Source of the DNA: an uncultured Fibrobacterota bacterium
GTDB lineage: Bacteria > Fibrobacterota > Chitinivibrionia > Chitinivibrionales > FEN-1185
Assembly (NCBI GenBank): GCA_963753345.1
Contig: CAVWBU010000019.1
Location: forward strand, 86,645 to 150,644
Direction: 5' to 3'
Length of the DNA stretch: 64,000 nucleotides
How positions within the stretch are numbered: position 1 is the first letter of the stretch; the number at the start of each line of letters is the position of its first letter. Below the pieces are notes generated by a model that did not search any database, had not been told where the DNA came from, and saw only the letters and a program-made list of their open reading frames with translations. This document shows, one piece after another, positions 18,045-28,270 of the stretch. The position numbers and the translations under genes are program-made.

Positions 18045-18350
18045 TTAGCAGCAGCTCCCAGAATCACCGCCGCAATCGCAGGTGCCTTTATCAGGGTCGC
18101 CCTTGGTCACAAGGCCGTTGATCATGGCGACCGCGCAACCGACCCCATTTTTTACAGACAGCGCGCCAAAGGAGCAGTTCTGAGAGCAAGCGCCGCATTC
18201 CATGCAGTTGTCAAGCGCCACGATTTGAGCACGATGATCGTGAATTTCAAAAACGCCGTGAGGACAGACTTCCACACAACGTCCGCAACCGGTGCAGTTC
18301 TCTACGGTAAGTTTCAAGGTCGATACGCCTGCTATATACGAATATTTCAT
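18045..18350 (-). CDS. hgcB: mercury-methylation ferredoxin HgcB
   Basis: 101 aa. Two CX2CX2CX3C motifs (CTGCGRCVEVCP, CMECGACSQNCS), the conserved internal GVGCAVA Cys, and a C-terminal vicinal pair ...DCGGDSGSCC. The start codon overlaps the hgcA stop (ATGA). GGAGG lies upstream. Confidence 0.85.
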   Translation of the reverse strand: MKYSYIAGVSTLKLTVENCTGCGRCVEVCPHGVFEIHDHRAQIVALDNCMECGACSQNCSFGALSVKNGVGCAVAMINGLVTKGDPDKGTCDCGGDSGSCC

Positions 18351-19337
18351 ACAATCCTCCAGACGTGAATGATTACCATGATGAGCAATAGTGCGGAAAT
18401 TCCTGCACTCGCGAGGTAGAGCGGCCAGGCGATTTTCAACTCCACTTTAACGCCCGAAGGTGACGTATAGGTGCTGCTGCCAGTGAACAAAAACGCCAGG
18501 TACGAGCTGAACGCGGGCACAGAAACCAGGTTGAATGCTGTCAAGAATGGCGTGCTTCGACAAATTGGCGACAGAAAAATGATTGCAATTGCACCAGTCA
18601 GGCCGGTAACGAATCCCTTGAGCGAAAATGACCGGCCCGGAATGAAAGGCAGCAGCAGCGGCGAAAGGATCGTGCCGGTGAAAAGAGCGGTCAGTCCCGC
18701 TATGACGAGAGGCACAACACCCGATAGCGCTTGACGGTAAATAATACCGGTGCGTGTCATGCCAAATAGAACAGCGGCAAAGAGTAAAAAGAGCCCTACT
18801 TTTTCGAATGCGGGGAATCGTCTCCATGGGAACAAGTTTTGCACGATCAACGATTGAAAACCGCACCCGCCGCATCGCAGGACTCACGGTGCAGTTATTG
18901 TCAAGAAATGCCGGTATATCCGATGCGCGCACCGGGCCGAATTTTACCGAAAAGCCGCCGCAGGCCTTTTGCAGCTTTGATGCGGAAACACCGGATGCGC
19001 TCAGTTGCGGCAGAATGAGAGTTCGGTGTGAAATTATTGATGTAAGATTGCATGCCGAAAGCTGTTTGACTATTTCATTGGTGCAAAATGTGCCTTTTCC
19101 TGCGGCGCACCACACGTTGATGCCCTTTGTGTCAAGCACAAGGATCCAGGCGTTCCTTCCTGTCAATGAACTGCGCAATATGTTGAAGCTGAGACGGTAG
19201 TTGGCAGAAACGAACACCGGATCCGATTCCTTCGGGTCTCCGAGCGCGTAGAGGCCGGGATCAACGCGGTACCGCATGCGGAAGCGGTTGCTGAGGCGGC
19301 ACATGATCGCGCCGAATTTGTCGGCAAACGAAAGCAT
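18347..19337 (-). pseudogene. hgcA: mercury-methylation corrinoid protein HgcA, interrupted by an apparent +1 frame break between the corrinoid and transmembrane domains
   Basis: Frame A (19337 downward): ...[11 protein letters not shown]...PVFVSANYRLSFNILR...LVLDTKGINVWCAAGKGTF...RRVRFSIVDRAKLVPMETI, then non-protein-like sequence. Frame B (A+1, open from 18883) carries the multi-helix membrane domain ...PAFEKVGLFLLFAAVLFG...LLPFIPGRSFSLKGF...FTGSSTYTSPSGV...IIHVWRIV. Removing one base from the G4 run (18812-18815, C4 on the coding strand) or the adjacent T5 run (18800-18804) restores LVPMETIPAFEKVGLFLLF. Confidence 0.85.
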
Positions 19338-20442
19338 GGTGGTGATCTGCTTCGCTTGCGGTTTGGAACCGCAGCCGTTGGGCTGCTATTATTTGGCATT
19401 GGCAGGATATCCTTTGCTTGAACTTGAGAGCGACATTTACAAGAGCGATCATAACCGGGACTTCGATGAGGGGGCCGATCACCGCAGCGAACGCCTCCTG
19501 CGAGGCAATGCCGAACACGCCGACAGCAACGGCAATGGCGAGCTCGAAGTTGTTGCTTGCAGCGGTGAATGAGAGGCTGACGGCCTCGTTATAGTTGATG
19601 CCCAGTCGCCGCGTGGCAAACATCGATCCGAAAAACATGATGAGGAAATATACCGCCAGGGGAATTGCTACTCTCACCACGTCAAGAGGCAACGCGACAA
19701 TGGTTTTCCCTTTGTATATGAACATGACGAGGATCGTAAACAGCAGCGCCACGAGCGCGACAGGCCCAATGCGCGGCATGAATTGTCCGGTATACCATGG
19801 CGTGCCTTTGATGGGTTCGACGATCATGCGTGTGGCGAATCCGGCGACAAACGGGATCCCAAGATAAATGCCGACGCTTATGGCCACGTCCTTCATGGAA
19901 ACATGAACTTCGCGTCCGGCAAGCCCGAAGAGCGGCGGAAGCACGGTGACGAACAGCCATGCATACAGAGCGAAAAACAAGACCTGGAAAATTGCGTTGA
20001 AGGCCACCAGCGCCGCGGCGTATTCGCTGTCGCCTTTCGCAAGGCTGTTCCACACGATCACCATGGCGATGCATCGCGCAAGGCCGATGATGATGACGCC
20101 GGTCATGAGGTGCGGCTGGTCGCGCAAAAAGATGATGGCCAGGCAGAACATCAGGATAGGCCCCACTACCCAGTTCTGGACGAGCGAAAGCGCCAGCGCT
20201 TTCTTGTCCGTAAATACGCCGCCGATCCGCCGGTAATTCACTTTGGCAAGCGGCGGATACATCATGACGATAAGGCCGATGGCGATGGGAATGGAGGTGG
20301 TGCCCACGCTCAGGCGCGACAGCGCAACGGAAGCCGAAGGAAACAGCCAGCCGATGGCGACGCCGAGCGCCATGGTACAAAAAATCCACAGCGTGAGGTA
20401 GCGGTCGAGGAAGGAGAGGCGCTTTTCGGGCACTGCCGGCAT
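19261..20442 (-). CDS. acr3: arsenite efflux transporter, ACR3 family
   Basis: Start set at the ATG at 20442 (AGAGGA upstream): [21 protein letters not shown]. Multi-[21 protein letters not shown] lies near the expected end. The ORF then reads on for ~47 more codons and overlaps the hgcA start by 77 nt. Confidence 0.85.
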
Positions 20443-20470
20443 AGTGTTCCTCTTTGTCATGCTTGCAGGA

Positions 20471-21172
20471 TCAAAATGAATAAAAAAGGTACATTGCTGT
20501 CGCAATCAGCAGGAGCCCAGCGGCAGTCCTGACGATTTTTTCCACCTTTTGCAGCCGTACAAGGTTCTTGCCGAAAGAAAGTCCGAAAACGAGCGCCGAC
20601 AGAGGAACACTAAAACCGATGGCATAGGCGAAAAGGTTAGTCAAAGCCCATGCAGTGTGTTTCTCAAGCACAGCGGCGCCGAGAATAATAAAAATGCCGG
20701 GATTGCACGGCAGGGAAGTCACGACAATGGTACCGCCGAAAATCATGCCGGAAAAACCGGAAACCAAGGTTCTCGACTTATTCCCGGATGTTATGAAAGG
20801 GAGTTTCGGGAATGCAAAGGGAAATAACCGGAGCGATGCGATGCCGAATAAGAGCGCGATGGAACCCCCGGCAATTTTCCAATATTCGCCGGAAACCCGA
20901 ATAGCCGTTTGTCCGGAAAAAATGATTACCGATCCTATTGCCATCAGTGCGGCAACCGCTCCGGCTATAAATAAAAGCGCGGATTGCAATGCTTTTTGCC
21001 GGTTATCATCCTGAATAAGGGAATATCCCGCAACAGCGCCCACGAGCGGCAATGTGCAGCATGCGCTTGCGATTACGCTGAGAATACCCAAAACAAATGA
21101 AAATGCAATAGACACAGGACCGTAGCCGGCGCTGTTGAGCATCGATTTGATTGCGGCAATAGCTTCCTGCAT
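20471..21172 (-). CDS. CcdA/DsbD-family thiol-disulfide transfer membrane protein
   Basis: 233 aa, ~6 TM helices, with Cys-bearing helices [10 protein letters not shown] and SLPCNPG as in cytochrome c biogenesis CcdA/DsbD proteins. Confidence 0.7.
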
Positions 21173-21195
21173 TGAGATCGTCTCCTTATGAATTG

Positions 21196-27428: not shown

Positions 27429-27487
27429 TTCCAGCTACCTTGAATAAACATTTGTGATAGTGCCGATGGCCGTGGTTCCAAGAGAAA

Positions 27488-27593
27488 CCCCCGCCTATGG
27501 CGGGGGAGCTGGACGGCTACATAACGGCACAGGTGCCGTTTCTTTTTTCGCGGCCTATGGGCCGCTTCAAAAAGCCACCGCCTATGGCGGTGG
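27488..27593. terminator. array of four GC-rich stem-loops between arsR and the Fe-S gene
   Basis: cccccgcc-tat-ggcggggg (27488-27506). acggcac-ag-gtgccgt followed by ttcttttttc (27524-27539). gcggcc-tatg-ggccgc (27550-27565). ccaccgcc-tat-ggcggtgg (27575-27593; on the minus strand this is followed by cttttt). Confidence 0.55.
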
Positions 27594-27676
27594 TCGTTTA
27601 CTCTTTTTCCTGCGCATTGCGGTCCATTTGTTGCCGTTTGGCCAAAGAGCCAATTAATGTAACAAGCAGAAGGACC

Positions 27677-27994
27677 TCATGTGAAAACCATCTGCGATTC
27701 TACTTTCTTCTTCAATACCTCATTGACACAGGTAAAGAAATTCAGAACGCATTTCATTTTCAAGGTGTAATAAATGCTTGTTCCGCGTTTTTCAAAACCG
27801 ACAATTCCGGCGTTCTTCATGATTGAAAGATGCTTGGAAATCGTCGAAACGTCTGCCCCAACCATTTCCGTCAACTCGCACACGCATTGCTCTCCCTTAG
27901 CCAGTTCATGCACGATAAAAAGCCGGGTTGGATGAGAAAGAGCCTTCATGATTTGCGCTTGCGCTTCGAATCTGACTAAATCGGTTTTATCCAT
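27677..27994 (-). CDS. arsR: ArsR/SmtB family metalloregulator (CVC type), second copy
   Basis: Start moved to the ATG at 27994 (aaaggaaaaaatATG). ALSHPTRLFIVHELAKGEQCVCELTEMVGADVSTISKHLSIMKNAGIV. Confidence 0.85.
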   Translation of the reverse strand: MDKTDLVRFEAQAQIMKALSHPTRLFIVHELAKGEQCVCELTEMVGADVSTISKHLSIMKNAGIVGFEKRGTSIYYTLKMKCVLNFFTCVNEVLKKKVESQMVFT

Positions 27995-28270
27995 ATTTTT
28001 TCCTTTCACTGCAAATACGACAGAAAACTTCACTTATTGTGGCTATTTGGTAATATAGCCAAATACACGGAAGGAGTCAAGGGAAAAAGGTTTCTTCGAA
28101 AAATGAAAGGGACGATACAGCGTTGTGTGAAGCCTTGTGAACAAAAGACATGAAAAAACGTGGACGCAACCGTATTCCGCAGCGTATCTTAATCGTTTCA
28201 CCACAGGATTAAGCCAATCGCATTGCCTCGCAGATGAAGAAAGCGCATCACGGAGAAGCATGGAAATTTC

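Follow-up and report, generated by a model that had tools for sequence, protein, structure and literature searches.

It is already published that hgcAB, the gene pair characteristic of mercury methylators, lies beside arsR, arsC and acr3, and that its expression can be controlled in response to arsenic. In metagenome-assembled methylators, acr3, arsC, arsM and arsR flank hgcAB (McDaniel, 2020; PMC7438021, Fig. 6). Similarly, arsR-like genes, with acr3/arsC nearby, come before many hgcA genes, and their presence is linked to lower hgcA transcription (Peterson, 2025; PMC11984097), while 14 of 31 confirmed methylators have arsR at most three open reading frames (ORFs) ahead of hgcA (Zhang, 2023; PMC10349881). 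In Pseudodesulfovibrio mercurii ND132, an ArsR encoded upstream of hgcAB controls their transcription and responds to arsenic and to S-adenosyl-homocysteine. In this organism, arsenic induces hgcAB together with two operons present at other loci, ArsR3-Acr3-ArsC and ArsR5-ArsP-ArsE-DGC, and a mutant deleted of hgcAB is more sensitive to As(V), methylarsenicals being not detected (Gionfriddo; 10.1101/2022.10.17.512643). Here we analyse a 64,000-nt stretch of DNA from an uncultured Fibrobacterota bacterium (contig CAVWBU010000019.1, positions 86,645 to 150,644; hereafter the window), where hgcA and hgcB end a series of 17 genes, most of them of the ars or thiol-redox type, located at 18045-28033 of the minus strand (hereafter the island; all coordinates are those of the whole window).

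The locus is similar to that of ND132 in that an ArsR/SmtB repressor heads an operon ending in hgcA-hgcB, and all three gene sets co-induced by arsenic in ND132 are also present in the window. They are arranged differently: the three sets of ND132 sit at separate loci, with only arsR adjoining hgcAB, whereas those of the window are contiguous and on one strand, with arsC, acr3 and two extra genes lodged between the second regulator gene, arsR2, and hgcAB. The host phylum also differs, Fibrobacterota for the window and Desulfobacterota for ND132. The association of hgcAB with ars genes is shared with the methylators described from metagenomes (PMC7438021, PMC11984097, PMC10349881), but these reports display one to three ars neighbours, to which the window and its relatives add a gene pair that we name cys214-tm233, an AhpD-like gene and a definable conserved candidate operator; some lineages, that of the window included, also add a whole ArsE/P/F/G-FeS-DGC cassette. 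The original prediction, made from the sequence alone, took the combination to be uncharacterised. This does not hold for the link between hgcAB and ars genes nor for its arsenic-responsive control, yet the physical merger of the three ND132 operon types, with its degree of consolidation, is new. Also new are what appears to be a conserved pair of candidate operator (opB) and regulator (ArsR2) across Fibrobacterota, and the cys214-tm233 pair, where cys214 encodes a Cys-rich thioredoxin-fold membrane family with a link to ArsD.

We propose, with a probability of about 70%, that the locus is a composite arsenic-resistance island, horizontally acquired by a Chitinivibrionales chromosome, where two ArsR-controlled units follow each other head to tail on a single strand, hgcAB making the tail of the second one, and where the frameshifts that interrupt some of the genes are most likely errors. 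This two-unit organization is favoured because each of the units has an ArsR and a palindrome to itself, because hairpins follow the first regulator gene, and because the units are separable in relatives. Unit A would be a widespread organoarsenical and thiol-relay cassette. Unit B would begin at opB, in a 321-nt gap, and end with hgcAB, most likely transcribed, to judge from the anatomy of the region, as the tail of an operon repressed by ArsR2. On the same grounds, As(III) or some comparable thiophilic ligand might trigger derepression. ArsC would then reduce As(V) and Acr3 export As(III), while the anchored cys214 protein and tm233, a CcdA-like transporter, would act on As(III) or thiols at the membrane, as suggested by fusions to ArsD discussed below. 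HgcA and HgcB, the corrinoid methyltransferase and its ferredoxin, would thus be co-expressed with the ars proteins.

Two proposed units, each with its own regulator

The minus strand carries every credible ORF from 28033 down to 18045, and plus-strand genes stand on both sides of the island (17093-17527 and 28271-28840). All 17 genes of the original prediction were found there, and searches of the island with Pfam and NCBIfam profiles bore out its family calls. With gene starts set as in relatives, neighbouring genes are separated by -12 to +65 nt (-12 to +28 nt in unit B). There are two exceptions: arsR1 and the gene that comes after it, FeS265, lie 248 nt apart, and the DGC and ahpD-like genes 321 nt. 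The tight packing with only two real gaps that had been described is correct, as is the presence of palindromes in each of these gaps, a further one, opA, being found upstream of arsR1. We name unit A the set made of arsR1 with opA, FeS265, orf55, arsE, arsP, arsF, arsG, DUF2798 and DGC, and unit B the set made of opB, ahpD-like, arsR2, arsC, cys214, tm233, acr3, hgcA and hgcB. In the order of the minus strand, the features are the following:

28080-28052, minus strand: promoter-like site TTGACT-17-TATATT, the -10 hexamer of which is overlapped by opA
28040-28061, minus strand: opA, palindrome TGGCTAT-N8-ATAGCCA, candidate ArsR1 operator, conserved upstream of arsR1-type regulators
27677-28033, minus strand: arsR1, ArsR/SmtB repressor with an EQCVCE motif; probable start ATG 27994 (105 aa)
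27440-27610, minus strand: insertion of ~168 nt with four GC-rich hairpins, between arsR1 and the Fe-S gene
26631-27428, minus strand: FeS265, N-terminal domain of ~200 aa and C-terminal CFeSP-type [4Fe-4S] domain (PF04060)
26457-26624, minus strand: orf55, conserved 55-aa ORF (identity 100% in L092, 91% in L085)
26207-26467, minus strand: arsE-type, MTH895/ArsE thioredoxin-like protein with a CPKC motif (TIGR00412, 111 bits, cutoff 62)
25131-26210, minus strand: arsP, ArsP_1-family permease (PF03773, 238 bits)
24598-25110, minus strand: arsF-family lipoprotein gene with a CPTC motif, broken by 8 indels, of which gene the previously described ORF 24763-25041 covers only a part
23909-24607, minus strand: arsG, CcdA/DsbD_2-like membrane protein (NF040495, 270.7 bits, cutoff 200)
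23679-23900, minus strand: DUF2798 small membrane protein (profile match)
23269-23646, minus strand: DGC-domain protein with four Cys (profile match)
22993-23016, minus strand: opB, palindrome ATATTTCGT-N6-ACGAAATAT, candidate ArsR2 operator, 45 nt ahead of the start codon of ahpD-like
22684-22947, minus strand: AhpD/CMD-like small CxxC protein (profile match)
22300-22683, minus strand: arsR2, ELCVC motif and C-terminal extension with a conserved Cys (PF01022 and orthologue comparison)
21840-22298, minus strand: arsC, thioredoxin-coupled arsenate reductase of the LMWP type (CTGNSCRS P-loop, C-x6-C pair)
21196-21840, minus strand: cys214, N-terminal CxxxCxC, one transmembrane (TM) helix, thioredoxin-fold domain, C-terminal CC..C tail
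20471-21172, minus strand: tm233, membrane protein of the CcdA/ArsG-like type; TM1 and TM4 contain Cys
19261-20442, minus strand: acr3, arsenite efflux permease; +1 base at 19416-19419, native stop expected at 19389-19391
18347-19399, minus strand: hgcA, corrinoid and TM domains in different frames; breaks at 19378-19386 and ~18812-18818
18045-18350, minus strand: hgcB ferredoxin, intact, with a 4-nt overlap with the end of hgcA; two CX2CX2CX3C motifs, C-terminal CC

The two ArsR proteins each score ~58.7 bits against PF01022, with a CxC site in the DNA-binding region (EQCVCE in ArsR1, ELCVCQ in ArsR2). The palindrome opB is perfect and occurs once in the window, where 0.03 occurrences are expected. 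With two mismatches at most, its occurrences in all the loci fetched are confined to the upstream side of arsR2-type/hgcAB clusters, at nine distinct loci (L003, L005, L027, L028, L076, L085/86, L089 and L092); by our own estimate, chance would yield ~0.05 matches over the ~1.3 Mb searched. The HgcA proteins of these loci are 43-80% identical to that of the window, and their ArsR2 orthologues share the motif GELC[VAI]C and the C-terminal extension with its conserved Cys: arsR2 is the regulator type tied to hgcAB across Fibrobacterota. As for opA, conserved copies precede the arsR1-type regulators of L001/L002, L085/L086 and L092; in L001 this regulator is the one heading arsC..hgcAB. Just after arsR1, two of the four hairpins of the insertion have in common the core CCGCCATAGGCGG and T-rich tails, and look like strong terminators. 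The four-hairpin insertion present there in the window and in L092 is missing from L085/L095; it may be a terminator, an attenuator or a small mobile element. Finally, the island has a GC content of 0.51, as against 0.57-0.59 in the flanks. The closest named relatives of its HgcA come from Fibrobacteraceae, Fibrobacter and Chitinispirillaceae metagenome-assembled genomes, and a neighbouring 995-aa protein has one cluster mate annotated as Chitinivibrionales.

Recurrence of the units in relatives

The cluster of 17 genes is real, and it is modular. L092, an independent ENA assembly, has all 17 genes, intact, with the order and flanks of the window. In L085/L086/L095 we find 19 genes, consisting of the window series supplemented with a Trx-DsbD pair, with acr3 relocated behind hgcB; these loci adjoin the same sigma-70/GT9 flank as the window and their HgcA is 80% identical to that of the window over the aligned region. 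In L085 the extra Trx and DsbD genes are inserted where the window has its 321-nt gap. The original prediction had named a chimeric join inside 18-21 kb as what would undo it; such an assembly chimera is rejected because the arrangement recurs in independent assemblies, with the 17 genes in L092, the 19-gene series in L085/L086/L095 and the acr3-hgcA junction in L001/L002/L094.

Several relatives possess unit B genes without unit A. The order is arsR-arsC-cys214-tm233-acr3-hgcA-hgcB in L001/L002/L094, arsR-DGC-CMD-arsC-cys214-tm233-hgcA-hgcB-acr3 in L084/L096, arsR-CMD-arsC-cys214-tm233-hgcA-hgcB-acr3 in L087/L097, and arsR-hgcA-hgcB-(CMD)-arsC-cys214-tm233-acr3 in L028/L089/L090/L102. Where it comes right after acr3 or tm233, hgcA overlaps the former or starts 35-125 nt after the latter. 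Further away, in Bacteroidales, Nitrospirota and Marinamargulisbacteria, the orders arsR-arsC-hgcAB-acr3 or hgcAB-arsC-acr3 are found. Conversely, the unit A series ArsR-FeS-Trx3-ArsP-ArsF-like-DsbD_2, followed by Acr3, exists on a contig of 481 kb, where hgcAB does not accompany it. Other arrangements are also met: arsR-arsE-arsF-arsG is joined directly to hgcAB in L004, and arsP/arsE lie close to hgcAB in L012 and L082. That hgcAB closes a densely packed operon of the ars type, as had been proposed, is supported; that the whole series makes one large unit is not, as units A and B each occur alone, each with its own ArsR and palindrome.

Several of these loci display features of their own. 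In L001, the HgcA of which is 89% identical, a type I restriction-modification system and an AbiC-like gene (378-6695) occupy the position of unit A, a location that this replacement would mark as a hotspot for island exchange. In L090, the hgcAB-arsC-cys214-tm233-acr3 cluster contains an MtrA-like corrinoid-protein gene (PF04208, E = 6e-46) at 9423-10103, together with a gene for a 191-aa multi-Cys membrane protein at 10245-10820. P0014, a 479-aa protein from a 5.9-kb JGI contig, comprises a full ArsC (LMWPc) and a full HgcA in a single ORF; it would be either a real ArsC-HgcA fusion or the result of a lost stop codon.

Proteins of the island

HgcB matches the full NF040864 model (1-93) with 112.3 bits for a cutoff of 99, and ends in ..GSCC. 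In HgcA, the cap-helix motif N(V/I)WCA(A/G)GK, which includes the Cys that ligates Co, reads NVWCAAGKGTF (ORF 18447-19337). All the motifs that had been listed, including the two CX2CX2CX3C motifs of HgcB and its terminal CC, are present, and profile searches support both assignments. A qualification is needed for HgcA, described as one ORF: its family stands, while its single frame does not. ORF 18447-19337 covers positions 8-190 of the HgcA model NF040863 and ORF 18347-18850, in another frame, positions 186-321, with 260.3 and 88.7 bits respectively, both under the cutoff of 275 bits. When one base is removed and the N-terminus restored, the repaired protein scores 369.4 bits, and the intact L092 orthologue 362.9. 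Its N-terminal extension (19337-19399) has a CCC motif in P0002 and L092 (MPNDTKPCCCGS, MPDNRQPCCCGS), and GCG in the window and P0001; CC/CU motifs have been described in this extension by Haft & Gwadz (10.1101/2022.07.06.499078).

Acr3 scores 427 bits over positions 1-327 of TIGR00832 (cutoff 282.8). The best match of ArsC, TIGR02691, gives 146.5 bits, under the equivalog cutoff of 174.3, and PF01451 gives 70.5 bits; the protein has the P-loop CTGNSCRS (CX5R) and the Cys pair of TLCDQANQSCP, residues which we take to have the roles that they have in pI258 ArsC.

Organoarsenical resistance has been described for ArsEFG and ArsP (Chen, Zhang & Rosen, 2019, ES&T 53:6182; Chen, 2015, Mol Microbiol 98:625; both as reported in PMC9144182). 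Unit A likewise encodes proteins of the ArsE, ArsF and ArsG families, side by side, and an ArsP_1-family permease. In contrast to that system, only its ArsG reaches the equivalog cutoff, SaoE/SO_0444-type models being the best for the ArsP permease while remaining under their own cutoffs. The arsF gene of the window is broken, its fragment scoring 65.3 bits against NF040494 (cutoff 60) and the intact L092 copy 111.8 bits. Besides, FeS265, orf55, DUF2798 and DGC are outside the characterised system. FeS265 (model pLDDT 89) ends with ~55 residues that match the N-terminal [4Fe-4S] domain of the CFeSP large subunit with 38-44% identity, its first ~200 residues giving weak matches to ACT/PII-like folds. 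Source annotations make it an '(Fe-S)-binding protein' or an 'ArsR family metal-binding transcriptional regulator'. The family (256 matches) is found beside arsR/ArsP/Trx3 genes in several phyla, and in L117 next to an arsR-arsD-arsA-acr3 operon. A role as a redox partner specific to HgcA is rejected, since the family is present in ars cassettes that are devoid of hgcAB.

CcdA/DsbD-type relays pair with membrane-anchored thioredoxin-like partners, as in CcdA-ResA. The arsF-arsG and cys214-tm233 couples look alike in this respect, each associating two proteins, one of the thioredoxin fold, anchored or extracytoplasmic, and one CcdA-like, in which TM1 and TM4 contain Cys. They depart from such relays in that cys214 lacks the canonical active-site CxxC, having instead Cys clusters at both termini, and in that the window has no cytochrome c maturation context; electron flow would follow by analogy. 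No Pfam or NCBIfam family matched cys214, nor did sequence comparison find similarity between it and ArsF. Close homologues make 46 clusters among 5.8 billion proteins, and a profile search retrieved 441 of 1.84 billion representatives at E <= 1e-3. The family is defined by an invariant N-terminal C-x3-C-x-C, a TM helix, a linker, a domain of ~110 aa and a C-terminal CC..C tail. AlphaFold2 models this domain with a pLDDT of ~90, and its best matches in the PDB have the thioredoxin fold (PDI b/b', thioredoxins). In every case tm233 comes next after cys214. Over its full length it is distantly paralogous to ArsG (27% identity, E = 2e-4), and one of its orthologues matches DsbD_TM.

About 19 of the best 150 relatives of cys214 are longer (310-420 aa), with an N-terminal extension, and in eight of the nine long members tested this extension contains an ArsD domain (P0331, P0357, P0375, P0378, P0390, P0405, P0423 and P0434). 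These fusions to the ArsD metallochaperone (PF06953) therefore suggest that the cys214 family is tied to As(III) handling, with its N-terminal Cys motif in the cytoplasm. The ArsD domain is also found fused to AhpD/CMD in L117 (4098-4742), within the arsR-arsD-arsA-acr3 operon, a fusion by which arsenic chaperoning may be linked to the small AhpD-like protein encoded at 22684-22947 of the window. The window proteins themselves, by contrast, have no ArsD domain, and the cluster has no arsA. Among 23 metagenome loci with a cys214 homologue, hgcA or hgcB is visible in 11, while the available DNA of 9 is not long enough for a decision. The last three (L110, L111 and L115) are long, encode distant members (35-42%) and lie in ars/P-type ATPase islands without hgcAB, so that we reject the idea of an accessory pair specific to hgcAB: cys214-tm233 would rather be an ars accessory, tightly linked to hgcAB in Fibrobacterota.

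Frameshifts in hgcA, acr3 and arsF

Three genes of the island are interrupted, which the original prediction had overlooked. The window was aligned with L001 (87.6% nucleotide identity), L083 (96.5%, a short-read contig) and L092 (97.1% over 11.8 kb), and three frame-breaking differences appeared at acr3/hgcA, identical in all three alignments, where the relatives are unbroken. An extra base in ATTCCCCGC at ~18812-18818 falls exactly between the corrinoid and transmembrane domains of HgcA; the same base is missing from all relatives, and a programmed frameshift at this site was rejected. An indel at 19378-19386 separates from the rest the native hgcA start (ATG 19399) and the Cys-bearing N-terminal extension. 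The extra base at 19416-19419 deprives acr3 of its last 10 residues and its stop codon, creating a spurious 55-aa tail that overlaps hgcA. In arsF, 8 indels are present between 25120 and 24712, so that the 92-aa ArsF-like gene that had been described is a fragment of a broken gene for a 168-aa lipoprotein, intact in L092 and L085.

Because the truncated HgcA is a public protein (P0056), the frameshift sits in the deposited assembly. Local assembly errors are nevertheless the more likely cause, with something like three chances in four or slightly better, rather than true inactivation of hgcA, of the acr3 terminus and of arsF in a methylator lineage that would recently have lost mercury methylation, which we consider doubtful. 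Errors are favoured because the arsF patch combines 8 indels with 8 substitutions in 423 nt aligned to L092, a one-to-one ratio at an ordinary divergence of 1.9%, when the remaining ~10.7 kb of the alignment has 277 substitutions and 0 indels: this fits a poor local consensus, not decay. They are also favoured because the dN/dS of hgcA is 0.13-0.40 with three relatives, neither domain showing in-frame stops or additional damage, because every close relative is intact, and because related contigs bear Flye-style names (contig_N), which suggests long-read assemblies. Furthermore, the indels are single bases in or beside short homopolymers. What pleads for inactivation, besides P0056, is that the three acr3/hgcA indels are packed in ~600 nt, in a segment that diverges from L092 by 7.95%, compared with 2.3-2.6% for the middle of the island and its right part, and 4.2% for the hgcA TM domain together with hgcB, and that other genes of the window also appear broken, namely a beta-helix gene and the N-terminus of a Rieske gene.

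As for these two genes, the first (29334-30942) encodes a right-handed beta-helix protein with a probable C-terminal sorting domain, and is spread over at least three frames; its last 480 nt have no indel with respect to L092, and at least one frame break may be common to both assemblies. The N-terminal region of the Rieske-protein gene has two 1-nt deletions with respect to L001 (13187, 13220), its ORF counting 163 aa in the window and 187 aa in L001.

Alternative explanations

In line with the supercluster of the original prediction, the 17 genes might instead be a single operon and a single system; transcription from the arsR1 promoter would then directly couple mercury methylation to organoarsenical handling and periplasmic thiol relays. 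A common strand and short junctions invite this view, as does the conservation of the full arrangement in L092, and in L085/L086/L095 where two genes are added; the immediate contact of arsR-arsE-arsF-arsG with hgcAB in L004, and the proximity of arsP/arsE to hgcAB in L012 and L082, go the same way. We hold it unlikely. The 248- and 321-nt gaps each have a conserved palindrome, a separate ArsR belongs to each unit, the two hairpins after arsR1 resemble strong terminators, genes (Trx and DsbD) have been inserted in the 321-nt gap of L085, and both units are found independently, in close relatives and elsewhere. Some observations do weigh against the two-unit organization that we prefer. Terminator prediction gave none in the 321-nt gap between the DGC and ahpD-like genes, making read-through from unit A to unit B possible; a sigma-70 scan found 13 sites, no clear excess over shuffled sequences (9.4 +/- 3.0); and the regulator of hgcAB in ND132 responds to S-adenosyl-homocysteine in addition to arsenic.

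At the other extreme, hgcAB might be a hitch-hiker, landed in a metal-resistance island with neither regulation nor function in common with the ars genes. The low GC of the island relative to its flanks would fit, and so would the distant cys214 homologues residing in islands without hgcAB. The frequency of the association is also modest: in the 80 best-scoring species-representative genomes with hgcA, an ars-type gene other than arsR is present within 10 kb in 14 (acr3 in 10, arsC in 9), and cys214-tm233 in one (L028), while an ArsR gene precedes hgcA on its own strand in 17 and lies within 10 kb in 26. As a rough estimate, assuming one or two copies per genome of a few Mb and not derived from a computed background, chance adjacency of acr3 would be ~1%. 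Yet these ars genes are all on the strand of hgcAB in 13 of the 14 loci, and the gene set recurs around hgcAB in several orders in Fibrobacterota, with simpler versions in Bacteroidales, Nitrospirota and Marinamargulisbacteria. The overlap of hgcA with acr3, or its short distance from tm233, leaves scant space for hgcA to have a promoter apart, conservation of the opB/ArsR2 pair goes with hgcAB, and regulation of hgcAB by an ArsR has been demonstrated experimentally in ND132 (10.1101/2022.10.17.512643). All this makes a mere passenger very improbable.

Surroundings of the island

Divergent from arsR1 and sharing with it the intergenic region of opA, a gene at 28271-28840 encodes a 189-aa class I SAM-dependent methyltransferase, which is also present in L092. 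On the other side, the 517-nt spacer after hgcB (17528-18044) contains short dispersed repeats, 80-88% identical, that may be REP- or MITE-like. Copies exist in the window at 50627-50764, 43594-43718, 43623-43678 and 52462-52509, and in relatives at 18185-18325 and 20214-20336 of L001 and 2879-2981 of L084, these repeats being found in other intergenic regions of the genome and of its relatives. Some 200 nt of the spacer (~17562-17761) are 79-81% identical to L092, with two BLAST runs that differ on the orientation. No significant structure came out when the sequence beyond the end of hgcB was folded (z = -0.89), and Rfam and tRNA scans of the window gave no matches.

What the association of hgcAB with arsenic genes may mean

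A practical consequence concerns surveys that use an HgcA profile with its cutoff as a marker of methylators: because of what are probably long-read indel errors, they would overlook the copy of the window, or label it a pseudogene.

A bolder conjecture, to which we give only a slim chance, is that in Chitinivibrionales and other Fibrobacterota HgcAB is a working part of the detoxification of arsenic or soft metalloids, mercury methylation being a side reaction. If so, HgcAB would be induced through ArsR2 and opB together with ArsC and Acr3, and served at the membrane by cys214-tm233; a methyl group would be transferred from the corrinoid onto As(III) or a thiol-bound metalloid, to be exported by Acr3 or the adjacent ArsP-type permease.

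The native function of HgcAB and its regulation are long-standing questions. In the window and its relatives hgcAB is, beyond the mere proximity of an arsR, translationally packed into a complete ars operon, accompanied by a conserved candidate operator and by two accessory genes that have independent links to arsenic via ArsD fusions. It would follow that ArsR2 binds opB, that As(III) induces hgcA in Fibrobacterota, and that cys214-tm233 affect arsenic resistance or mercury methylation.

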